Of a stretch of DNA of 64,000 nt, positions 3,797 through 15,313 are shown piece after piece (the first letter of the stretch is position 1; each line of letters starts with the position of its first letter). A program made the translations under genes and the position numbers. This stretch comes from Planctomycetota bacterium (lineage in GTDB: Bacteria; Planctomycetota; Phycisphaerae; WQYP01). A model generated the notes under the pieces. The model made no database searches, had not been told where the DNA came from, and worked only from the letters and a program-made list of their open reading frames with translations. The stretch is taken from assembly GCA_021800165.1 (NCBI GenBank), contig JAJYZF010000010.1, forward strand, positions 2,194-66,193, given 5' to 3'.

Positions 3797-4744
3797 ATGG
3801 TAGCGTTGAATGAATCAATATCGGCGTCCGGGCCGCGTAGACCATCGCGGTGCTATCGCGTCACAGCGAGTTACCCCCAAGGTGGCAATGGTGTTGCGGC
3901 GGGCACCGTGCAATACACCTACTACGATTCGCAGTGGCAGGCCATCGAAACCCGCACCAACGGCACCGCCGCATCCAATGTAACATCGCAAACCGTCTGG
4001 TCCGCTGCATATATCAATGCCCCGATCCTGCAGGACACCTACAACGCCGGTGTGATCCAGCCGAACAGTCGCCTTTACTTCACGCAAGACGCCAATTGGG
4101 ATACGACCGCCGTAGTCGGTTATAACGCCACCACCGGCACCTGGCAGGTCGTTCAGCGCTATGTCTACAGTCCGTATGGCACGATAACGATATTGAATGC
4201 GGATTGGTCGGCAACGCCGACTGGGACGGCCCCCATCGTGAACAATCTCTATCAAGGCATGACGCTCGATCCCGTAACCGGCCTCTACTACGAACGCGCC
4301 CGCTGGTATTCGCCGAGTCTTGGCACATGGATTAGCCAGGATCCACTTTCCTACATCAACGGCGCGAACACGTATCAGTTTGTAATGAGCAACCCGGTGG
4401 GAGGGGTGGACCCCTCGGGCCGTGTGACGGGCAAAGACGTGCTGACGTGGATGACCGCCACCTACCACGAGGTGCCGGGCGGCGGCGAGTGGGTCGACGC
4501 CGCAGGAATAATTTCCCGAACCCTCAGGCCCTGGATTTACAAGACGGCGCAGAATCGGGCGATCCACGATATGGATCGCTGCCCTGCGAAGGGTACCAAG
4601 GACGACCCGTACTACCACGGCCTCATGAACATGGCACAGGGCCAACCTCTCACGACTACGGAGCACGATGCCCTCCAGCGGCGGCTAAATACGGCCTATC
4701 CGTTCTGGGACGTATTCTGGATGCATGTGTTCGACCTTTTTTAG
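3797..4744 (+). CDS. Standalone RHS-core protein with a short (about 100 aa) C-terminal toxin domain (cassette 2).
   Basis: Core reads YQGMTLDPVTGLYYERARWYSPSLGTWISQDPLSYINGANTYQFVMSNPVGGVDPSGR. The first 30 aa differ from cassettes 1 and 3, after which the sequence is homologous (TVQYTYYDSQWQAIETRTNGTAAS...). TATAAT lies 9 nt upstream of the ATG. Confidence 0.7.
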   Translation: MVALNESISASGPRRPSRCYRVTASYPQGGNGVAAGTVQYTYYDSQWQAIETRTNGTAASNVTSQTVWSAAYINAPILQDTYNAGVIQPNSRLYFTQDANWDTTAVVGYNATTGTWQVVQRYVYSPYGTITILNADWSATPTGTAPIVNNLYQGMTLDPVTGLYYERARWYSPSLGTWISQDPLSYINGANTYQFVMSNPVGGVDPSGRVTGKDVLTWMTATYHEVPGGGEWVDAAGIISRTLRPWIYKTAQNRAIHDMDRCPAKGTKDDPYYHGLMNMAQGQPLTTTEHDALQRRLNTAYPFWDVFWMHVFDLF

Positions 4745-4778
4745 CTGCGGGCGGTGGCGGGGCGGTTTTGTTGCGGTT

Positions 4779-5411
4779 ATGTATAGGCTGTTGAGAATGA
4801 AATTCCTCTGGGTCATGCTTTCGGCCTTTGTCGCGGTCGCGGCCGTCGTCGCCGCCCTGGTGATCGGTGGGGAGGCAGGGCGGCGTGCGGAGCGCCTCCA
4901 TCTCAATATGGAAAGGAACCCAACGGCGGGTCTTCCCGGGTCCGCGCCGTTCCACGGCAGGCTTCGGCCCGGGAGCTATTACGGTGTTTTTTCCGGCGGG
5001 CGCGTTGCCATCATCGTCGGGAAGAATGGGGCGCTCGACGTCACCGGGGACTTTTCTGGCGAGAATAAAAACCTTGGTATGCACGCATTTCTGTTCCGGT
5101 TTCGGCGGTCGGGCGAGTTCGGCGTTCCATTACTCTCGGTGACCACCCGGTGGACGCAGATGGCCGGGCCGCGTCGGAACCGTCTGTACCAGTGGGGGGA
5201 CATCGGCGTTTGCGGCAGGCCCAGCTTCGAGGCGGAGCGGAGGTCCCGGGGCGCGGTGTCGCGCAAGCGATGGTGGCTGCGAGGCCGTTGGGTGGAGGGC
5301 GCTGCGGTGCAGCCGCCTTTCTTGGTTTACAAGGGCCTCCGCTACCGCTACGTCCAGGGGTCGGGGCGTTGGCGATCCCAGCCTGGGCGATCGGGGCGGC
5401 CCGGAAAATGA
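4779..5411 (+). CDS. Putative immunity protein for cassette-2 toxin (hypothetical, N-terminal TM helix).
   Basis: Overlaps the 3' end of the toxin ORF. The N-terminus is hydrophobic (MKFLWVMLSAFVAVAAVVAALVIGG). Start chosen at the ATG at 4779 (MYRLLRMKF...). Assignment is by position only. Confidence 0.35.
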   Translation: MYRLLRMKFLWVMLSAFVAVAAVVAALVIGGEAGRRAERLHLNMERNPTAGLPGSAPFHGRLRPGSYYGVFSGGRVAIIVGKNGALDVTGDFSGENKNLGMHAFLFRFRRSGEFGVPLLSVTTRWTQMAGPRRNRLYQWGDIGVCGRPSFEAERRSRGAVSRKRWWLRGRWVEGAAVQPPFLVYKGLRYRYVQGSGRWRSQPGRSGRPGK

Positions 5412-5835: not shown

Positions 5836-5857
5836 CAGGTGAGAGTTGAACAGGCGA
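5836..5857. repeat. 22-mer caggtgagagttgaacaggcga; a second copy lies at 8996-9017.
   Basis: Exact 22-nt identity, with further similarity in the flanks (…gcgtggtt). One copy precedes cassette 3 and the other lies at the distal end of the array. Confidence 0.55.
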
Positions 5858-6003
5858 TCAATAGAGCGCAAGGACTTATGCGTGGTTCGGTGGACTCCGT
5901 TGCGTGCGATCTGGATTTGAACGTTTGGCCTATCTCTGGTGCGGTATTATAATCGTCCGCAGCTGTTGGAGCCGGCACCGGGAACGGCGATAATGAGCGG
6001 CGT

Positions 6004-7473
6004 ATGGTAACGGTCGTTGAAGAATTCAGGAGCCGAGGAGGACGCCCCGCGGGGCGGAATCGTGTGGCCGCGCCGGGCATTCCTGCCGACACGACGAATT
6101 ACACCTATTACGATTCGCAGTGGCAGGCCATCGAAACCCGCACCAACGGCACCGCCAGTAGCGACGTAACCTCGCAAACCGTTTGGTCCGCGGCCTGTCC
6201 CGGCGCTGCGGCGCTCACTCGGCCTCCGGCCTCGACGGGATTTCGCGGGGTTGAGCCCGGTGGTGTTGTGGGCAGCGGCCCACACCCGCTCAATATCAAC
6301 GCGGCGGTACTGCAAGACAGCTATTACAACGGTGTGCTGCAGGCAAATCAACGCCTGTACTTCACGCAAGACGCCAATTGGGATACCACCGCCGTAATTG
6401 GCTATAACAGCACGACGCAGACTTGGGGTGTCGTTCAGCGATACGTGTACTCCCCCTATGGCACCATCACCATTTTGAGCCCCGATTTCACCACCGCACC
6501 AACCGGCACGGCTCCCATCGTCAACAATCTCTATCAAGGCATGGCCCTCGATCCCGCCACCGGCCTTTACTACGAACGCGCCCGCGGGTACCGCACCGGC
6601 CAAGCTGGGTTGAGGCAGGAGCCGAAATCCCGATATACCGCAGGAGCGGTTCATCGGGAGATCAGCCAAGACCCATTGCAATACATCAACGGTGCTAATA
6701 CGTATCAGTTTGTGATGGGGGATTCGGTGGAGAATGTGGATCCGACGGGGCTGGCGGAAGCGTATGCCCCAAACTGGGGGGCTGGAGCTGGTCCGTTGAT
6801 CTTTAATTACGAGATGCTAAAAATTAGGGTATGCCCGAATGACCTCTCCAAGGCAATTTCACTCGCCCGGCAGGAAATCGGTGATTTCGGTGAATTCAAC
6901 CAAGGGAACGCCTTTAATGTGGAATTTGTCATGTCCCATCTGCCGCAGGTTTACGCAAGCTTCGGCATCAACAGTTGGCTTCAGTGGGCGCTGAATGTCG
7001 CGGCGGGCAACAACTGGCGGGCACCTGTAGCCCTGATATGGCACTACGCCCCGACCTACCTTGAGGCGGTGACCCAGAATCAGCACCCCTTGGTTGGAAT
7101 TCGCCGGTGGTACGTGATGCCATATTCAAGCGGCGCGTTCCTCGTCCTCACCGAGGCGTACGAGCGTGGTCGTGGCCCGATAAACGCGGCAGCCTTGGCC
7201 AATGAGCTGCCATTGCCGCCGGGGCAAACCAGCCTAAAGGAAACCACCGAGGCTCTCTGGGACAAGGAGCCCGGCAATGTCGCCCAGAGCGTGAAACAGG
7301 ATTTCGGACCGGGAGTGAGTTGGGGCAAGTTCCTCAACCACTGGAAGCCGCTGTCCGGCCTGAGGAACCTCAATAACAACCCTTGGATTAATTCCCTGCC
7401 GCCGTCCGAGGGGCCCGGGGCGGTACCGCCGCCGCCCCCACTGTCGCCAGTTTTCCCACCGGGGCTTCCGTGA
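6004..7473 (+). CDS. Standalone RHS-core protein with an approximately 250-aa C-terminal toxin domain (cassette 3); carries two in-frame repeat-element insertions.
   Basis: N-terminus MVTVVEEFRSRGGRPAGRNRVAAPGIPADTTNYTYYDSQWQ is nearly identical to cassette 1. The core ends in QDPLQYINGANTYQFVMGDSVENVDPTGL. Relative to cassette 2 there are +96 nt (6192-6292) and +48 nt (about 6586-6668) insertions. The second destroys the RWYSPSLGTW motif but keeps the frame. Confidence 0.65.
   Translation: MVTVVEEFRSRGGRPAGRNRVAAPGIPADTTNYTYYDSQWQAIETRTNGTASSDVTSQTVWSAACPGAAALTRPPASTGFRGVEPGGVVGSGPHPLNINAAVLQDSYYNGVLQANQRLYFTQDANWDTTAVIGYNSTTQTWGVVQRYVYSPYGTITILSPDFTTAPTGTAPIVNNLYQGMALDPATGLYYERARGYRTGQAGLRQEPKSRYTAGAVHREISQDPLQYINGANTYQFVMGDSVENVDPTGLAEAYAPNWGAGAGPLIFNYEMLKIRVCPNDLSKAISLARQEIGDFGEFNQGNAFNVEFVMSHLPQVYASFGINSWLQWALNVAAGNNWRAPVALIWHYAPTYLEAVTQNQHPLVGIRRWYVMPYSSGAFLVLTEAYERGRGPINAAALANELPLPPGQTSLKETTEALWDKEPGNVAQSVKQDFGPGVSWGKFLNHWKPLSGLRNLNNNPWINSLPPSEGPGAVPPPPPLSPVFPPGLP
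6192..6292. repeat. In-frame 101-nt insertion (net +96 nt) containing a REP-like element in inverted orientation (…gacgggatttcgcgg…).
   Basis: Absent from the homologous position of cassette 2 (ggtccgcTGCATatatcaa). Shares the cgaaatcccg 10-mer with the repeat-island elements. Confidence 0.5.
6614..6659. repeat. REP-like palindromic element (ggcaggagccgaaatcccgat...catcggga) inserted in-frame in cassette 3.
   Basis: Same family as the five copies in the 9.3-10.5 kb island (gccgaaatcccgatgGcgcaggagcc…catcggga). Carries a CCCGAT/ATCGGG inverted repeat. Confidence 0.6.
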
Positions 7474-7483
7474 GGATGTTTAA

Positions 7484-8896
7484 ATGAGGAGGCTCCCCCC
7501 ATCCGAGGCGGCGCTGTGGTGGCTCGTCGTGGCCACCTCGGTTGGCCTCTTTGCCGCCACGGTCGTACCCGTCCTCCTGTATCTCGGCGCAATTGCCAAC
7601 CCGGCCGTGAGTGGGCTTTTTGCGGTGGCCGAAGGCGCTGCCACGCTGGGGGCGTCGCCCGTAGGAACTTTCCTTCTGCTGGGGACCGCTCTGGTGTGTT
7701 ACACCTCGAGCATCAGCGTCGGCTCGCCGCCCGATTTGATAAGATCGCGGCGCACGCGAGGAGGTGGTGTCCGGTTGGTGGTTCTGGCCGTGCTGCTGCG
7801 GCTGGCGGTTGCGCCCTTTATCGGATTTGGCGGTGCCTACGCTTTTTTGGTTTTCATTCCCTTGGGCGTGCTGGGCATCTGGTTAACTCTTTCGGCCGTC
7901 GTCCTCGCAGCCCGCGGGCTGGTGCGGTGGAGGCGGACATGGGACACCGTCCGTGACGGCGTGGGTTGCGGACCGGGATCGTTCGGCAAACGCCATGTGG
8001 GCTTTGGGGCCGGGTTTTGGCTCGAATCTGCAGTGGCGTGCCTCTGGCTCGTGGCCGCAGCCCACGCCGTTGCAGATCGGCTCGGGGCGGCGGTGCCGTC
8101 GCCTCGCGTCTACGGTTGGGGCGGCGACGCGGGGACGTGTGCTTGGAACAGCGCAATCACTTTTCTGCTGCCCCGCGGGGCGTCTGCCGTTCTTGCAAGC
8201 GGTGCCATATTGATGCTACGGGCTCTGCGGGTGCCGCGAACAAGCGGGGTGGGTCCTGTAGGTGCCCGCCTGCGTTTTTCCCTCATGATGGGCGTTGGGG
8301 TAGCTGCAATACTGGCGTTTTGCGACGTGTTTTACCAAGTGAACGTGAGCTACACACCAGCGTGGATGGCGTGGCGGCTGTGGCTGCTTTGGGAGTTTTA
8401 CACCATTGGAGCGGTGGCATTCCCGGTTTCGTCGGTGGTTGTGCTGCGGGATACCACGGCCGCCGCGCGGTGGATTGGCCGCGGTCTGCCGGCGCAGATG
8501 CATGCTGAGGGTAGCAGGCGGTTGGCCAGTGTACATTTCTGGTCCGCATGCACTTTGGGTATTTATGGGGGGTGGGTTGCCCACGGTGGTGCCTCCCGGC
8601 CCACGGATGAGGCTTTAAGGAAACAGGGAACTTGCTGCTGGCAGTGGGCCGTAATGTGCGTGCTCCTTGTGTTGTGTTTTTTTGGTGTGGTCGGTGGTTT
8701 CTGCGTTGCCATTTGCCTGCTCGCCGCCGCGTTAGTTCCGCCGAGTGGTATCGGCGTGGCGCTGGGCGCGTACGAGACCATCGTCGCCATCGCCTACCTT
8801 TGGATTTTTATAGGGTATTCCGTTCGGGCGTACCGACGGGTACTTGCCGGGGGTGAGCCGGCCTACCCAATGGCCAGGGGTTTCAGGCTGTTTTAG
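7484..8896 (+). CDS. Polytopic membrane protein (about 10-12 predicted TM helices); putative immunity protein of cassette 3.
   Basis: Starts 11 nt after the toxin stop. Highly hydrophobic throughout with no recognisable family. Assignment is by position only. Confidence 0.35.
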   Translation: MRRLPPSEAALWWLVVATSVGLFAATVVPVLLYLGAIANPAVSGLFAVAEGAATLGASPVGTFLLLGTALVCYTSSISVGSPPDLIRSRRTRGGGVRLVVLAVLLRLAVAPFIGFGGAYAFLVFIPLGVLGIWLTLSAVVLAARGLVRWRRTWDTVRDGVGCGPGSFGKRHVGFGAGFWLESAVACLWLVAAAHAVADRLGAAVPSPRVYGWGGDAGTCAWNSAITFLLPRGASAVLASGAILMLRALRVPRTSGVGPVGARLRFSLMMGVGVAAILAFCDVFYQVNVSYTPAWMAWRLWLLWEFYTIGAVAFPVSSVVVLRDTTAAARWIGRGLPAQMHAEGSRRLASVHFWSACTLGIYGGWVAHGGASRPTDEALRKQGTCCWQWAVMCVLLVLCFFGVVGGFCVAICLLAAALVPPSGIGVALGAYETIVAIAYLWIFIGYSVRAYRRVLAGGEPAYPMARGFRLF

Positions 8897-10793
8897 GCAC
8901 GCGCGTTGGCGAAGCGGCCGTCCAAAAAAATAGTGACAGGCTACCTATTAAAAGGAATCCCATAATCGCCAACCAGGCGACGACCTCGCCAGAAGCAGGT
9001 GAGAGTTGAACAGGCGACAGCGGCGCACCAAGAAGTTGTGCGTGATTTTAATGGCGTGGTTACCTGCATAGGTTTGGCATCCTGAGGTGGAAAGGCTAGA
9101 TTTTCTTCGCTGAGAAAATGGCTCTTTTGTGCCAGCACTTATGGTTGCGGTGAATGCAACACCTCCAGAGATCAAATTGGCCGCGAGGTATCGCCGCCGT
9201 AAAAACTTCGTTGCCTTTGACCGCTGACCGCCGACCGCTTCCCAACATCCTTTATACGCCCCTGCGTACCTTCGTGCCCATTGTGGTAAAAAACCGTCAT
9301 CGCCGTTAAGGCATGGATGCCGAAATCCCGATGGCGCAGGAGCCGCGCATCGGGACTGACCGCCGACCGCTCATCGCTTCCCAACATCCCCCGCCGTCCT
9401 CTAAATCTGTGAAATCTGTGTAAGGCGTTTATCCCGACGTCCATCGGGATGGATCCCCCCGTCCGTCCTTCGCGCTCCTCTGCGTCCCCAGCGGTGAATA
9501 ATCATCTCCCGTCTCGTCGCGGCGCAGCCGCCAGCCCTCCGTCTTCCTTGAGCTCTACTGTTCACCTGTTCACCTATCACCTTTCTCGCGCAGCGCCCCA
9601 TCCTCTGCGGTCCTCTGCGTCCCCTGCGGTGAACACTCCTGCGGCCGCAGCCGCCTTTAACTCCTAGCTCCCAGATTCTAACTCCTGCGGCCACAGCCGC
9701 CGTCTCCCGTCTCGCGGGCCGCAGCCCGCGCCATTACCCTCCCCCATACCCCGCCTATCACTCATCAAGCGGAACTCCCGATGGAAGGCTCATTCCCGAT
9801 GGCTATTGGGACGCGCCAAGCCTCGTTCCGCCTGACCGCAGGCCCCCAAACCGCCCGCGATCACTGACAAGTAAATACGTACCCCGCCGCGTGGCCCCTC
9901 GAAGCCACAGGCCAGGCACCACACCAAAATAAGGAATTCGACCCATGCCCATGCTGCGCCCACAAAACGAAAAAAAGCCCCCTCAACCCGGAAAATTAAA
10001 AATGTTTGGCCACATTGCCCATCTTGGCCATCTTACCCCCAAAACCCCAACAAAACCGCCCATTTTTCAACCTGTCCAAGACGGCCAACCCCCAAAACCT
10101 TGGCCACCTTGGCCATCTTGCCCGTCCCCGCCCTCCCGCTCTGCGTACCTCTGCGTCCGAAGTTTATCCCGATGTCTGTCGGGACGGTAAAAAATCGTCA
10201 TCGCCGTTGAGGCATGGATGCCGAAATCCCGATGGGGCAGGAGCCAAGCATCGGGAACTCCTGTCTCCTGACCCCTGACTCCTAACTCCCGTCGCGGCAT
10301 GGATGGCGAAATCTCCCGATGTCCCGTAGGCCCAACGCCGTTCGGGAGAGTCGCCAATCGGGAACTCCCGTCTCCTGACTCCTGACTTCTGACTCCTAAC
10401 TCCCGTCGCGGCATGGATGCCGAAATCTCCCGACGCATCGGGACAGGAGCCAAGCATCGGGAAGGCATGGATGCCGAAATCCCGATGTCCCGTAGGCCCA
10501 ACGCCGTTCGGGGGAGCCACCAATCGGGACCTCCCAACTCCTAAGTCCTAGCTCCCAGCTCCTAGCTCCCAACTCCTAACTCCTTACCAAAAAAACTTGT
10601 TGATCTTGTGGATCTTGAGAATCTTACCCAATGCCGCGCGGGTGAAGGGCTTTGGAGAAATGCCGGGGTGTGTCCAAAAATCTTTGCGCCGTGCGAAGAA
10701 TTTGCAGGTTTGTGGCATTGAGTCAGCCGACATGCTACCAGAATGTTCCGATGGTCCAGCCTAAGTACCGCAAGAGAGCCGACCTGATGCGCT
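8897..10793. repeat. Non-coding repeat island between convergent genes.
   Basis: Five copies of ggcatggatgccgaaatc(t)cccgatg start at 9310, 10210, 10296, 10410 and 10464. Palindromes of the form cccgatg...catcggg recur. Other repeats include cgccgaccgct, ctcctgactcctaactcc, ttggccatcttgcc, and the pair tttatcccgaCgtcCatcgggat / tttatcccgaTgtcTgtcgggac. Confidence 0.7.
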
Positions 10794-13700
10794 TCATTGC
10801 GCCGATGCGGCAACCGACCGTACGTCGGCGATTCGCAGATAATAATTACGGATGATCCGGCGATAACCGGACGGGAATTTTTGCCTGGCGAGATTCAGCA
10901 GCCGCAGTTGTTGCAGCGGTCCAAGGTGTTCCCATTGCGCTGGACTGATGCCCAAGGCCGTTATTTGCAAAGGCACCATTCCGGCGCTCGTCAGCGGTCC
11001 CGAAAGGCCCGTTCCGGCGCTGCCCGGCGCGTGGCCCAAAGCCGAATGGCTTGCGCTGCCACTTCCAGGCTTGCCATGATTTCCACCGGCCATAGCTGAT
11101 GACTGCAAGGCGTCAGCCAGCGTTGCCCAGGCCCGGGTCAGCGACTGCGCTGCGGCGATCGCGGCTCCGGCATTGCCGGAGAGCGCTTGTGGTTGGGCGG
11201 CTAGCGCTGCCTGTACGTGTCGGGCTACCGCGGTCATGGTGTTCGAAGGGGTGCGGCCTGCGCCGTCCTGGCTGGAACCCGCCGCAGGACTACCTGCCCC
11301 GGCCGGGCGTTGCCAACGAGTGCCCATCGACGTGTTATGCGCTAGCGTCCTCATTTCCCCGCTGGCCGTACGCATTTCGGCCAGGGCTTGGCCCTGATAA
11401 TTCTGAGCCTCTTGTCGATCCTGGGTGGATTGCGCCGCGGCCGCCTGAGCTTGGGCCGTGTCGGCTCTTTGCATTTGTTGCAAAGCCGTTTCCAGATGCT
11501 CGGCCACATTTGGCGCACCGTCACGAGCTTCTTGTTGTAATTTTCGCCCTTCGGCAATGGCTCTGGCAATGGCCGCGGCAGTCTGGTGCTGGCCGTTTTC
11601 CACCGCTTGGGCTGTCGGTGTGTGATGGGCCGCCGCCGTCCGCGCGGCAAGGGTGGCCTGTCGGCTGGCCAATGCTCGGGCTCGCATGGCTGCCTCGGTC
11701 GCCTGCTGCGCCAAGTGCTTCTGTGATTCAAGGTGTTGCGTCTGGTCGCGTGTAGCCTTTGCCAAATGGTTATAAGCCTTTTGCAACAAACTTGCCCCGG
11801 CACCGCCGGATTGATGCGTGACTTGTTCCACCGCCTGCTTGGCATCGGCTCTGGCCTGAAGCAGATTCGCCCGCTCCCGCCTTGGCGGGTTTTCGTCAAG
11901 CATGTGGTGCACCTGCCGCCGAATGGCATCCGCTGCTGGCACCATGCGGTGCAGCGCTTGTGCCGCGTCTGGTTGTTGCCCAGTGGCCGTTGCCGTTTGA
12001 ACCTGTCGCGAAAGTTGGTTCAAGGATGCTTGATCACGCTTCGCCTGACTGAACTTGTGTTGGGCCGCAGGCGTCTGGGTCTGCTGGGCATACCGGTCCA
12101 ATTGCCTGGCCATGGCCCGCAAGGTCTGCACGATATTGTTACGTGCTTCCCTGGCCACTGCGGCATCGCCGCGGCTTTCCAGGGCGCGGCTTACGGCTCG
12201 CATCATCGCTGGGGTAACCGGCTGCGCCGACGCTGCGGCAATCGTCGGCTTATAGCGCTGGTTGAAACGCGTTATTTGTCGGTTCAGAATCTGCTGTTGG
12301 TCGGCCAGATGCTCCAAAGCGCTCCGCTGGGCTTGCCGAAAAATAGCCGGATGCAAATCAATATTTTCCACCGCCTGTCGGCGCACAATGGTGGCTACTT
12401 GTTGGGCTAACTGGCTGATGGCTGCCGCCATGTGCTTGGCGGCCGGAATTTGCAGTGATGGATGTTGACGCAACAACTGTTGCAGTTGTTGGGCCAAAGC
12501 CTGTTGGTCGTGGTAAGCAAGGTGGCGGGACCCGCTGTGGGCGAGCCTTTGAGCGATGGAGTGCTGCCGACGTGCCAACCGGGCCAGTGAATTCTTCAAG
12601 GCCGCACGAGCCTTGGCCTGATCCAAGGTGTGCAGCAGCCGCAACAGCGACGCTTGCGCTCGCTTTAGCCCCATCCGGCCAATCCGGGCCAACTCTGGCA
12701 TGGAGATGGGACGCGGCTGATCCGCAGCCAGACCGGTGCGGGCCAGATCATTGGCGGCCACCTGCACCGGACCGTGGGCCACACGAATGGCTTGTGCTGC
12801 TACCGCGCCAAAATCGCTCGCCAAGAGGGTCTTGGCCTGTTGCGCCAGAGTCTGCCCCGTGCGCAACACCCGCGCGGCCGCATCGGCCACCGCCGCCTTG
12901 CGTGCGGGATCCACCGCCCTGTACCTGGGCCAACCGACCAGCACCCGGACCTGGGTACGGCCCACCTTTACCGCGGTTAACGTCTGCACAATGGCTTTTC
13001 GCAGCAACTTCCATAATTTGTTATCCTGCCGGGTTTGATATTGGTGCCGCAGGTGGGCATCAACGATAAGCTCATGGCGGGCGGTCATGGCAAAATGGGC
13101 TTGCGGTCGGGCATTATCCAAGGCCTCGAGTTTATAATAAATCGTGTGGGCAGCGGCTCGGCCAGCCGCTCGGATCTGCGATTGCACCGCCATGATCCAA
13201 CTGCTTTTAATGGCCTTGGCGGGCTTGGGCGGTAAGGTCATATTGACGGTTCGCGGGGAAGAACCATCGGTCCACACCAAAGCCCGGATCGCCGAAATTC
13301 CATAGCTGTCGGTAGCGCTAAATACCACCGGTACGTGATCATCAGGCCGTACCCGCACCGTTAAGGCGGGGGTGAGAATATGGATCGTCGGCGGCCAGGC
13401 CGCATCCACCGTCACCGGCCATGGATGTTTGCTGATCGTCTTGACTCCATGGCGGTTGACCAACACCACCGCATAAGTGGCGTTGTGCGTCAACACCAGC
13501 TTCGCCTGATACGCCCGCGGACCATAAGCCATCAGCGGCAGCGTTTCCGGTGGACCGATATTTGGATTTACCATCAGCCGGCTCCCCACCGCCAGCAATT
13601 CGGTGGTATGAATAATCACCTGAACATGTGAACCAAACAGTCCGTGGATGGCTCCGCTGTGGTCATGAATAATTTTTTCCGGCAGCCCGGTATATGCCGG

Positions 13701-14381
13701 AAAGCGGTACCGTTTTTCAAAGAACGTAATCGTCGGCCCTTGTTCCACCGGGCCGGAATGTCGGTGAACGGATACGGCCGGTCCGGCGGCCGCCAGCCAG
13801 GGGAACACCGATCTTTGCACTCCCAGCGTCAGCGTTTGCGGCATCAGTGGCCAAAGGATGGCCCACGTGAGCACCAACGGGGCGCAAAGACCGGCCCAGC
13901 GTATCAATTTGGCGGTGGAAACAGCTTGCTCCGGATCTACAGCGTGCACATCATCAGCCGCCTGGTTAATAACGTGATGAACCAACTGCGGCGATCCCAT
14001 AAAGGGGTCCGGTCGTTTTTGGGCAAATTCCACGGCACTTAGAAAAAGTTCTTGCGATTGCGGTATGAGAGCATCCATGGTAGATGCGGCCGCCTGCAGA
14101 TTTACCCTTCGCAGAGCTGGACCAAGCACCCGCAGACATAACCCCGCCGGCACCACCCAGACCAGCAGAGCCAACACCCAACGCAGCGCCAGGGGCATGT
14201 GCGTGAATTCTCCCAGCAGGAGCACCCCGGCCAAGGCGACCGCCAAACTTACAAAGAGCACCCGTAATACCGCCAGACTGATCCGCACACTACGCTGCCG
14301 CCGCGCCACGCTTTGTAGCGATTCATGCAAGTTATCGGGCATCCGCCCTTTCGTTGCTGGATTGAAATTGCGAGCCATCAT
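10794..14381 (-). CDS. Large membrane-anchored protein with a long Gln/Ala-rich coiled-coil region (hypothetical; possibly DUF4175-like).
   Basis: Two N-terminal TM helices lie within the first 190 aa. A globular domain of about 400 aa follows. The last 600 aa or so are dominated by A/Q/R/L heptad-like sequence. The protein ends ...FPSGYRRIIRNYYLRIADVRSVAASAQ. ATG at 14381 (MMARNF...) is preferred over the TTG at 14420. Confidence 0.5.
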   Translation of the reverse strand: MMARNFNPATKGRMPDNLHESLQSVARRQRSVRISLAVLRVLFVSLAVALAGVLLLGEFTHMPLALRWVLALLVWVVPAGLCLRVLGPALRRVNLQAAASTMDALIPQSQELFLSAVEFAQKRPDPFMGSPQLVHHVINQAADDVHAVDPEQAVSTAKLIRWAGLCAPLVLTWAILWPLMPQTLTLGVQRSVFPWLAAAGPAVSVHRHSGPVEQGPTITFFEKRYRFPAYTGLPEKIIHDHSGAIHGLFGSHVQVIIHTTELLAVGSRLMVNPNIGPPETLPLMAYGPRAYQAKLVLTHNATYAVVLVNRHGVKTISKHPWPVTVDAAWPPTIHILTPALTVRVRPDDHVPVVFSATDSYGISAIRALVWTDGSSPRTVNMTLPPKPAKAIKSSWIMAVQSQIRAAGRAAAHTIYYKLEALDNARPQAHFAMTARHELIVDAHLRHQYQTRQDNKLWKLLRKAIVQTLTAVKVGRTQVRVLVGWPRYRAVDPARKAAVADAAARVLRTGQTLAQQAKTLLASDFGAVAAQAIRVAHGPVQVAANDLARTGLAADQPRPISMPELARIGRMGLKRAQASLLRLLHTLDQAKARAALKNSLARLARRQHSIAQRLAHSGSRHLAYHDQQALAQQLQQLLRQHPSLQIPAAKHMAAAISQLAQQVATIVRRQAVENIDLHPAIFRQAQRSALEHLADQQQILNRQITRFNQRYKPTIAAASAQPVTPAMMRAVSRALESRGDAAVAREARNNIVQTLRAMARQLDRYAQQTQTPAAQHKFSQAKRDQASLNQLSRQVQTATATGQQPDAAQALHRMVPAADAIRRQVHHMLDENPPRRERANLLQARADAKQAVEQVTHQSGGAGASLLQKAYNHLAKATRDQTQHLESQKHLAQQATEAAMRARALASRQATLAARTAAAHHTPTAQAVENGQHQTAAAIARAIAEGRKLQQEARDGAPNVAEHLETALQQMQRADTAQAQAAAAQSTQDRQEAQNYQGQALAEMRTASGEMRTLAHNTSMGTRWQRPAGAGSPAAGSSQDGAGRTPSNTMTAVARHVQAALAAQPQALSGNAGAAIAAAQSLTRAWATLADALQSSAMAGGNHGKPGSGSASHSALGHAPGSAGTGLSGPLTSAGMVPLQITALGISPAQWEHLGPLQQLRLLNLARQKFPSGYRRIIRNYYLRIADVRSVAASAQ

Positions 14382-15313
14382 TGCCCATCCGCTTGAAACT
14401 CTGCCATGGCTTAAAATCAATTATACCCGATCTTCGGCCGCCACAGGCATCTTCAGCTTCAATAAAGGGAGGATACCGCTACTGGGGTGACCGGCGTTCT
14501 CCCCCGGTCAACAGCACGGCAATCCCGATTTAATAGGACCTGCGGAATATTCTCTTATTGTCGGGGTGGCAACCGGTCGAAAAAGCTACTATCCCGGCAC
14601 GGAGGCTATGTCGAGAGGCCAGGGATCGGTAGACAACTTTGCGTGGAAATGCCGGAGTAATGTTTAATGCCAGCCTCTTTGCGAATCACCCTGACCGATT
14701 CGTCGTTTGCTTTACGCATGCTACCCGGAGGTGACGCCGCAACTGCCACGGCCGCCGGCCGTTCTACAACAATTTCCGCTCCGCGCCATCGCATTCATGC
14801 TCATCCTGCGGCGAGCCGCCGGCTCAGGCACAGCGTTCGGTGCCAAGCAACACGACGATTGCCAAAACTCCTGGTTCCAGCGGGCACCACCTTTCCGATG
14901 TGAACATTCCATGGTCTAAACATGATGTCGCAGTTGGGACTGCGGGAGGTTGGGGGCGGCTTGGCTTTGGCCCGGTGGACAGATGGTCCATTTTCCACCC
15001 GCATTTTGTTGCGCGTTCGGGAGTTCGGCGGCAAGAATTGCTGAGGGTTTGGTGGCTTTTTTGGCGTGGCGGAAGCCCGGTGCTCCACGGCCCAATCCCA
15101 AAGGTCCCGTTAGTCGTTCGCAGACCGGGCCAAATGGTGGCGTAGCAGGAGGCGGACAATCCTTTCACCATGCCACCCGTACCCTCGCCGACCGCAAGGA
15201 ATTATCATTGCCGGTTTTGCCGCCCGGCAGACACCTCCCTTGCGTTCCACCGCCGGTCACCATGAAACTGCATCTATCCACAGAAATCGGTGAGCTGGTG
15301 TCATTTGACCTGC

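Follow-up and report, generated by a model that had tools for sequence, protein, structure and literature searches.

In-frame palindromic hairpin repeats within the core of an orphan Rhs toxin cassette from a Phycisphaerae bacterium

How a bacterial toxin cassette can be interrupted twice within its conserved core by small palindromic repeats, and still be read through to its end, is the question raised by a locus in a 64,000-nucleotide (nt) stretch of DNA from a Planctomycetota bacterium of the class Phycisphaerae (contig JAJYZF010000010.1, assembly GCA_021800165.1), which is referred to as the window and whose numbering is used throughout. The gene concerned, cassette 3 (6004-7473, plus strand), is the third of three tandem Rhs cassettes, and a first-pass annotation of the sequence had proposed that it carries two in-frame insertions of elements resembling repetitive extragenic palindromic (REP) sequences. 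[quoted passage not shown] The suggestion that the element is tolerated, or that the frame is under selection, is in its core supported by what follows.

Three tandem modules occupy the window from 1.5 to 9 kb, each one composed of an open reading frame (ORF) followed by a second ORF. The cassettes proper are cassette 1 (1511-2848) and cassette 2 (3797-4744), both on the plus strand, uninterrupted and used as comparators, cassette 2 with both sites empty, and cassette 3, where a leader is followed by the last ~200 residues of the Rhs core, which hold the two insertions, and by a variable toxin tip. They were placed by their ORFs, by MAFFT alignment in the case of the two comparators, and by the NCBIfam profile TIGR03696 (Rhs_assc_core, cutoff 32.5 bits), which scored 63.9 bits for cassette 1, 69.0 for cassette 2 and 39.9 for cassette 3, where the match is split into two stretches because of insertion 2. 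Pfam gave no match in any cassette or neighbouring ORF (E <= 0.01), and the placement came from NCBIfam instead. In a search of solved structures, residues 116-209 of cassette 2 aligned with the end of the TcdB2-TccC3 and Rhs shells. The cassettes have sizes of 315-489 residues and short leaders at their start, and the full YD-repeat shell and the N-terminal delivery domain are absent. A short leader, a core end of about 200 residues with two DPxG motifs and a variable tip are the make-up of an orphan Rhs cassette, and all three are orphan Rhs C-terminal modules. Their homologues come nearly all from Phycisphaerae/Planctomycetota metagenome bins, with Phycisphaerae RHS proteins in the case of cassette 3.

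A MAFFT alignment of the three cassettes bore out both insertions at the sizes first proposed, +96 and a net +48 nt; both changes are multiples of three, and the ORF at 6004-7473 reads through them. At the second site (6586-6660), cassette 3 has 74 nt versus 26 nt in cassettes 1 and 2. This segment opens with a diverged scar (6586-6609, plus strand), whose codons GYRTGQAG replace the conserved WYSPSLGTW of the Rhs core in the alignment of the three cassettes, and continues with the 51 nt of insertion 2 itself (6610-6660, plus strand; 17 codons, LRQEPKSRYTAGAVHRE), a short-type element of an in-gene subfamily, as defined by alignment, fold and covariation. The RWYSPSLGTW of cassettes 1 and 2 has indeed been replaced, as first noticed, and now reads RGYRTGQAG plus that peptide. 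The scar is identical in the related sequences P0002 and P0006, which show 100% identity to cassette 3 in 30-nt windows from 6589 (in P0006 also from 6604), and the scars at this site differ in other lineages.

Insertion 2 is a member of a dispersed hairpin repeat family, intergenic in a Phycisphaerae clade. It forms two hairpins, GGC-AGGA-GCC and TCCCGAT..ACCGC-AGGA-GCGGT..ATCGGGA, and the five copies reported for the repeat island at 9.3-10.5 kb were all recovered, between genes and on the plus strand: at 9305-9355 (the GGCATGGATGCC subfamily) and 10206-10256, both supported by sequence match and fold; at 10291-10363, a long-loop variant placed by sequence match; at 10405-10462, with a nested TCCCGACGCATCGGGA hairpin, a variant that also occurs in-gene in P0002 and P0006; and at 10463-10529, a further long-loop variant in tandem with the preceding copy. 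Aligned with the intergenic copies, insertion 2 agrees with them in 41-43 of 51-54 positions (z of 12.7-14.5 versus shuffles); for those at 9305-9355 and 10206-10256 the agreement is 42-43 of 54 aligned positions (z = 14.5 versus shuffles), and the 12-mer CGAAATCCCGAT has exactly four exact copies in the 64 kb, at 6623, 9321, 10222 and 10475. The two-hairpin fold is common to insertion 2 and the intergenic copies, with minimum free energies, computed for DNA, at z = -5.0 for the former versus -3.1 and -3.5 for two of the latter.

Repetition of the element, on which the first proposal depended, is not limited to this island: intergenic short copies occur both in the window and in at least ten related Planctomycetota/Phycisphaerae metagenome-assembled genomes (MAGs). 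A DNA pattern scan with one genome per species returned, in related MAGs sampled as fragments, about 60 short-type copies at 31 loci, with the consensus CCGTTGAGGCATGGATGCCGAAATCCCGATGCGACAGGAGTCGCCAATCGGGA and often in tandem with a period of 46-54 nt. Multi-copy matches to the pattern were confined to Planctomycetota/Phycisphaerae MAGs, with scattered single chance matches elsewhere, and in one of these genomes, MAS4.bin39, they lie on at least 12 contigs. Among 34 distinct copies, 87% of cells are paired, and the inner stem shows 37 double-sided changes versus 12.6 in shuffles (0 of 500 reach 37), a signal that collapses in slid controls. Rhs-like DNA was present in only 5 of the ~31 pattern-found loci, and the short copies outside rhs all lie between genes or in a 5′ leader. 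Rfam holds no family for the element, its only match being a chance-level microRNA (E = 0.18, far under the gathering score). In-gene short copies read GGCAGGAGCC where intergenic ones read GGCATGGATGCC, and their translation is always LRQEPKSR...HRE; they constitute a subfamily of their own, found only in Rhs cassettes. Among the predicted peptides that span the inserts of cassette 3 are ...SRYTAGAVHR and GVEPGGVVGSGPHPLN.

Three further observations concern this repeat family. CT-rich runs of CTCCTGA/CTCCTAA-like heptamers flank the intergenic hairpins, both in the window (10258-10290, 10372-10404 and 10530-10585) and in other MAGs (at about 6864 in locus L001 and about 5640 in L010), so the repeat islands are composites of at least two repeat types. 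A related element, ATTGAGGCAGGAGGCCGAAATCCCGATAGCGGCAGGAAGCCGCGTTATCGGGA, has two good copies, in L039 (6595-6647) and L040, large contigs of the Spirochaetota-labelled MAG JTS-AC436, which could have come about by horizontal transfer or by an error in binning, or could mean that the range of hosts is wider. Finally, two tandem reversed elements of the intergenic short type lie at 687-798 of L014, just upstream of the called start of P0053, and since they share the stop-to-stop frame of the Rhs ORF, the P0053 gene may be interrupted there too.

Insertion 1 (6197-6294, minus strand; unit GTCCCGG...GCTCAAT, from MAFFT and unit alignment) is of a second, long type. Its net gain of 96 nt (6199-6294, 32 codons, read as PGAAALTRPPASTGFRGVEPGGVVGSGPHPLN) lies between GCGGCCT and ATATCAAC, at the position named site B, between VWSAA(Y) and INA; the boundary is ambiguous by 2 nt, a shared AT, and long-type junctions are likewise so. 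The long-type unit, of about 96 nt, begins with ATCCCGGCGC, has CGGGATTTCGCG in its middle and ends with CCGCTCAA(Y), and is always translated as (Y/N)PGAAA...GFR...LN. In an alignment of 14 long units, three invariant DNA blocks, ATCCCGGCGC, CGGGATTTCGCG and CCGCTCAA, are separated by hypervariable blocks that form hairpins, and every indel is a multiple of three. No variation is seen in the closing stem, whereas the inner hairpins do vary, with compensation as judged by eye, the energy z being only about -1, and the folding energy of insertion 1 itself is no better than that of shuffles (z ~0).

The first-pass annotation took insertion 1 for the same element in reverse, which holds only in part. 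The motif gacgggatttcgcgg on which this was based is present at 6232-6246, and the orientation given by GTTGAG...CGAAATCCCG...CGGGA is that of the minus strand. A reversed long unit reads (G/A)TTGAG, hairpin, CGAAATCCCG, loop and CGGGAT, which is the architecture of the short element with its three ordered motifs, and the long-type reading frame is the frame of genuine reversed short copies. A global alignment of reversed insertion 1 with the short consensus or with the long-loop intergenic copies was not significant (z <= 3.4), and no intergenic long-type copy was found in the ~0.9 Mb examined, so a common superfamily, with insertion 1 as reversed kin of the short element, is probable, not proven. 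A metagenome DNA scan for ATCCCGGCGC N20-35 GGGATTTCGC was swamped by chance matches, with a single real one (L182) among 120 stretches, and is silent on copies outside rhs. Two other identities were considered for the long unit and rejected: a resemblance of CUGAUGAG, present in some units, to a hammerhead, which lacks GAAA after stem II and whose motif is absent from most copies, and an integron attC site (RYYYAAC ... GTTRRRY), as GTTGAGC and GCTCAAC do occur but with their order inverted, and different units do not conserve the inner copy.

Where the insertions fall in the protein bears on what they may do to it. Rhs proteins carry two DPxGL motifs 17 residues apart, with the catalytic aspartate in the second, in a C-terminal aspartyl-protease plug deeply embedded in the Rhs shell, and cleavage there is required for toxicity (PMC8636562). 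The corresponding pair in cassette 3, DPLQY-INGANTYQFVMGDSVENV-DPTGL (6670-6753, plus strand), recognized by translation and by comparison with TcdB2-TccC3 and with that work, is intact and has the canonical spacing of ~17 residues. It lies directly 3′ of insertion 2, which takes the place of YSPSLGTW and stops three residues short of the first DPxG. The conserved strand just upstream of this motif, R-x-Y-x-P-x-x-G-R/T-W/F, which cassettes 1 and 2 share with TccC3 (RYYQPWIGRW), is replaced in cassette 3. The surface loop first imagined for insertion 2 has to be abandoned, since the insertion adjoins the first DPxG of a buried protease plug, and from this position it may impair self-cleavage. 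Only for insertion 1 does a loop placement find some support, in an AlphaFold model of residues 1-262 of low overall confidence (predicted local distance difference test, pLDDT, of 55) and uninformative in the plug region: residues 64-101 are modelled as coil (pLDDT 30-38) with strands on either side (pLDDT 77-88), and the 32-residue segment probably loops out between two shell strands.

Neither insertion is private to this strain. Both element types recur in frame at identical codon positions when the cassettes come from other genomes, and about eight sites besides these are also occupied. At the insertion-2 site, in-gene short copies are found in the window, L001, L004, L002, L003, L089 and L112; a second site for short copies lies in the YD-repeat region, where QSWTLDSQGNWSSYTSNG becomes QSWTLDTDYVL-LRQEPKSRLSEGAAYRE-TSYTSNG (+17 codons), and reversed short copies occur in P0053 (NPDWRFRPASGFRLPWLN) and P0028. 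The unit of insertion 1 is present at the same site B in P0004, P0014, P0028, P0036 and P0053, and also at the sites named A, C, E and F, and a long unit is found in the linker after DPxGL of P0133, a more canonical Rhs. In L058, the 17-residue spacer that separates the two DPxG motifs holds four tandem long units (33+32+32+34 residues), placed in frame after QDPAGY and before INGANTY, and relatives carry one, two or three units. When the concatenated long-type peptides were searched against 5.8 billion proteins, 47 new proteins were recovered, 43 with an Rhs core match and the other four with orphan-type leaders or starting inside an element; the short-type peptides, searched against the same set, gave three proteins, all Rhs orphans. 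The in-gene forms thus appear, from these searches, only in Rhs-cassette contexts (47/47 and 3/3). Element-bearing proteins number 82 among the 259 collected. As a side observation, a short orphan cassette in L012 (4439-5371) has an in-frame TAA in its conserved core (LY*ERARWYSPSLGTW), with its site-E element still in frame with the toxin tip, and reads as a decaying element-bearing cassette.

Preservation of the frame is real and general, as length variants all differ by multiples of three. The census of in-gene copies in related MAG loci found the steps of three that an unbroken frame calls for: all 17 long units measured are of 95, 98 or 101 nt (inserts of 93, 96 or 99 nt), and the gain from an in-gene short copy is 51 or 57 nt. 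Rhs high-scoring segment pairs (HSPs) run through the elements in a single frame, also at loci that the DNA pattern alone had brought up (L058, L089, L100 and L112), whose copies are likewise in frame. One caveat on this evidence is that copies at the same site may share descent.

The first proposal would have fallen if the long form were ancestral and cassettes 1 and 2 carried deletions. This alternative now has next to nothing in its favour: the same segments do occur at the same positions in several other genomes, but they are absent from most of the 120 closest homologues, their states are scattered in patches over a tree of 115 cores, and both the TIGR03696 profile and the solved TccC3/Rhs structures align across the two sites without them. 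It is already contradicted, moreover, by the homology of insertion 2 to an intergenic repeat family and by the occurrence of the same elements at other, unrelated gene positions. The short, uninterrupted form is, on this comparative evidence, the ancestral one and both insertions are derived.

How the elements came to be shared by different cassettes is suggested by junctions in which the left flank of one site is joined through a single element to the right flank of another. Hybrids of this kind link the YD site to the insertion-2 site (L100, for which P0025, having both copies, represents the precursor), site A to site B (P0002, P0013, P0024 and P0082), site A to site E (P0143) and site F to site E (P0165); regular expressions and the pattern of core HSPs suggest that the junction of A with E is also present in P0144, P0145, P0147, P0149, P0150, P0154 and P0155. 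Such junctions are what recombination between two in-gene copies is expected to leave behind, with loss of the core that lay between the copies. A filled and an empty cassette, P0025 and P0092, are identical for ~230 nt upstream and then have 59 nt versus 8 nt (GCCGGTGG, coding G-R-W); beyond the element, they share ~80% identity over 35 nt and are identical for 57 nt, after which the toxins are unrelated. No target-site duplication was found in this pair, whose difference looks like patch exchange, not transposition. Spread of the elements by recombination between cassettes is the process that these sequences suggest, and the patchy insertion states on the core tree point the same way. The element arms, compared among seven cassettes, show identities of 97% and 90% (96% and 86% when only third codon positions are counted), versus 73-78% (53-58% at third positions) for the flanking, highly conserved core, with sliding profiles in agreement. 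In L237, the Rhs orphan array with the empty-site P0092 is followed directly downstream, at 4591-5391, by an HTH_17 gene and a gene of the phage-integrase family.

The scenario that we propose would start with a few founder insertions of REP-like hairpin repeats into rhs cassettes, which would be dispensable, present in multiple copies and silent until recombined into an expressed rhs gene. The insertions would then be copied between cassettes by homologous recombination or gene conversion. Because a cassette would be useful only if translatable after being swapped in, the variants to persist would be only those that keep the downstream toxin in frame, and the extra peptides would be passengers. 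Several observations weigh against this scenario. The absence of intergenic copies of the long type from the ~0.9 Mb examined puts in doubt that it is, or ever was, a free mobile element. Clustering of the ORFs around the 31 element loci yielded only rhs and spurious repeat-encoded ORFs, with no transposase or RAYT-like partner, where RAYT stands for REP-associated tyrosine transposase; with no target duplication either, transposition can be held only as a candidate route. Much of the in-frame evidence came from protein searches, able to return open frames only, and five of the six frames of the short element and four of the six of the long one are free of stops. The sole full-length Rhs recovered, P0172 (3169 residues, with the same tip as P0092), has no element, a single example of little weight. 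The conservation of the arms, lastly, is the main point left unpredicted if the elements were pure passengers: very recent spread, short conversion tracts or direct selection on the DNA sequence could each account for it, and the last of these would not be expected of passengers.

This last point opens the way to a doubtful alternative, in which the elements have been co-opted, with the DNA itself under selection: they would serve either as blocks of homology that are portable and translatable, or as hairpins to which a recombination protein binds. In its domesticated form they would be a recombination module specific to Rhs arrays, a block of hairpin DNA held in one reading frame, through which diverged cassettes would swap toxin tips, trim their cores and change their number of copies at defined joints, with no need for homology between the cores. 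In its favour are arms far better conserved than the neighbouring synonymous sites, although recent spread could also explain their identity, together with several independent hybrid junctions placed exactly at elements, the switch of identity at the element between P0025 and P0092, the many mini-cassettes made of leader, element, INGANTY..DPxG and toxin, in-gene subfamilies restricted to rhs, and the clustering of elements at the boundary of core and tip (the insertion-2 site and site E). Any repeat within a family, however, yields deletions and conversions without selection, recombination between non-equivalent sites destroys the shell, P0172 offers no element as a partner, and no dedicated recombinase was found, though an integrase adjoins one array.

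A further reading is simple decay, with cassette 3 a pseudogene hit twice by repeats and its frame kept by chance and ascertainment. Insertion 2 does destroy a motif conserved from TcC toxins to Rhs, the element-bearing proteins are all of 667 residues or fewer, L012 has a stop in its core, and most frames of both elements are stop-free. We nevertheless consider it improbable: no stop interrupts the 489 codons of the ORF, which include a toxin tip with homologues in P0003 and P0005, the frame is kept at all of about ten distinct insertion sites, 17 of 17 long units fall into three length classes congruent modulo 3, four tandem units follow one another in frame, and copies found by a DNA pattern blind to ORFs are in frame as well. 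Still more improbable is that the inserted peptides are themselves selected, as linkers or as cleavage or recognition sites. The constant frame of each element type does yield conserved residues (PGAAA..GFR..LN and LRQEPKSR..HRE), but these are the residues encoded by the invariant DNA blocks and the stem arms, where third positions are conserved too; those encoded by the loops vary freely, and AlphaFold shows no structure in insertion 1. Tolerated repeats in a cassette kept translatable are the reading that we retain.

Comparison with known systems places these elements close to several of them. With REPs, bacterial interspersed mosaic elements (BIMEs) and REPINs they share imperfect GC-rich hairpins of 35-55 nt, compensatory changes in the stem and tens of dispersed intergenic copies, often in tandem. 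A GTAG head is the known flanking signature of REPs, whereas the flank signature here is GTTGAGG / CGAA, and no RAYT gene was present near any copy in the fetched flanks. REPs are also extragenic by definition, and the long type has no intergenic copy in the ~0.9 Mb examined. The RPEs (Ogata et al. 2000, as summarised in PMC10969869) are in-frame palindromic insertions, and the likeness to them is one of behaviour, with none expected in sequence: small palindromic repeats occur in non-coding DNA and in frame within genes, adding a peptide and leaving the ORF intact. RPEs differ in that they reside in many unrelated housekeeping genes of the AT-rich Rickettsia, whereas the elements described here are found, within genes, only in Rhs cassettes of GC-rich Phycisphaerae, and show distinct in-gene subfamilies, tandem amplification and apparent spread between paralogous cassettes. 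Bacterial MITEs such as Correia/CREE, ERIC, BOX and Nezha can also sit in genes and create in-frame fusions (PMC10969869). They too are non-autonomous short repeats, but in our case there are no terminal inverted repeats beyond the hairpin arms, no target duplication in the filled/empty pair and no parent insertion sequence among what was found. Membership in either REP/RAYT or MITE families cannot be claimed, because no transposase, no target duplication and no separate terminal repeats were found. The host locus resembles other orphan Rhs and polymorphic-toxin arrays, with tandem modules of core end, toxin and putative immunity gene and mosaic recombination between cassettes, and in the literature searched, no Rhs array has been described whose conserved core, or the stretch separating its two DPxG motifs, contains repeat elements. 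A final likeness is to contingency loci, since copy number at one site goes from 1 to 4, in units of 93-102 nt and always in frame, but the unit here comes from, or is related to, a dispersed palindromic element and is not a product of slippage in native coding sequence.

Some features around the cassettes deserve mention on their own. A perfect direct repeat of 22 nt, CAGGTGAGAGTTGAACAGGCGA, occurs at 5836-5857 and 8996-9017 (32 nt at 88% identity), 3160 nt apart, and brackets cassette 3 and its downstream ORF; it has no further copy in the window or the fetched loci, except for the identical contig from the JGI, and could mark the boundary of a module insertion or duplication. That JGI contig starts at 5270 in window numbering and shows no difference from the window, and hence is not an independent assembly. 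The leaders of the orphan cassettes are conserved (MVTVVEEFRSRGGRPAGRN... or MVALNESIS...) and are fused to differing points of the Rhs core in different cassettes. Those of cassettes 1 (1487-1659) and 3 (5938-6110) share 86% identity along 173 nt, a stretch that begins upstream of the start codon, and conserved leaders are also present in the P0143, P0121, L012 and L089 cassettes, which suggests a shared 5′ junction module or orphans that are translated independently. The ORF after cassette 3 (7484-8896, 470 residues) is very hydrophobic, with many membrane spans predicted by eye and no family match, and presumably encodes the cognate immunity protein. Adjoining the repeat island is an ORF of 1208 residues (10794-14420, minus strand) with no Pfam or NCBIfam match, and one of 1221 residues, without Pfam matches, is found beside the L012 array in a similar position.

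For those who annotate such genomes there is a practical consequence, as annotation by profiles returns a split or weakened Rhs core match for element-bearing cassettes. The locus also opens questions about how much insertion an autoprotease plug tolerates, about silent cassettes selected to stay translatable and about repeats recruited as recombination joints. Selfish DNA in frame within genes is best documented in Rickettsia, and the elements reported here would extend it to a distant, GC-rich and free-living phylum, with a different pattern of spread. Their in-gene forms are confined, as far as they have been found, to one recombining toxin family, where they lie in its most conserved catalytic region, show tandem expansion and are associated with deletions and with the exchange of patches between cassettes.

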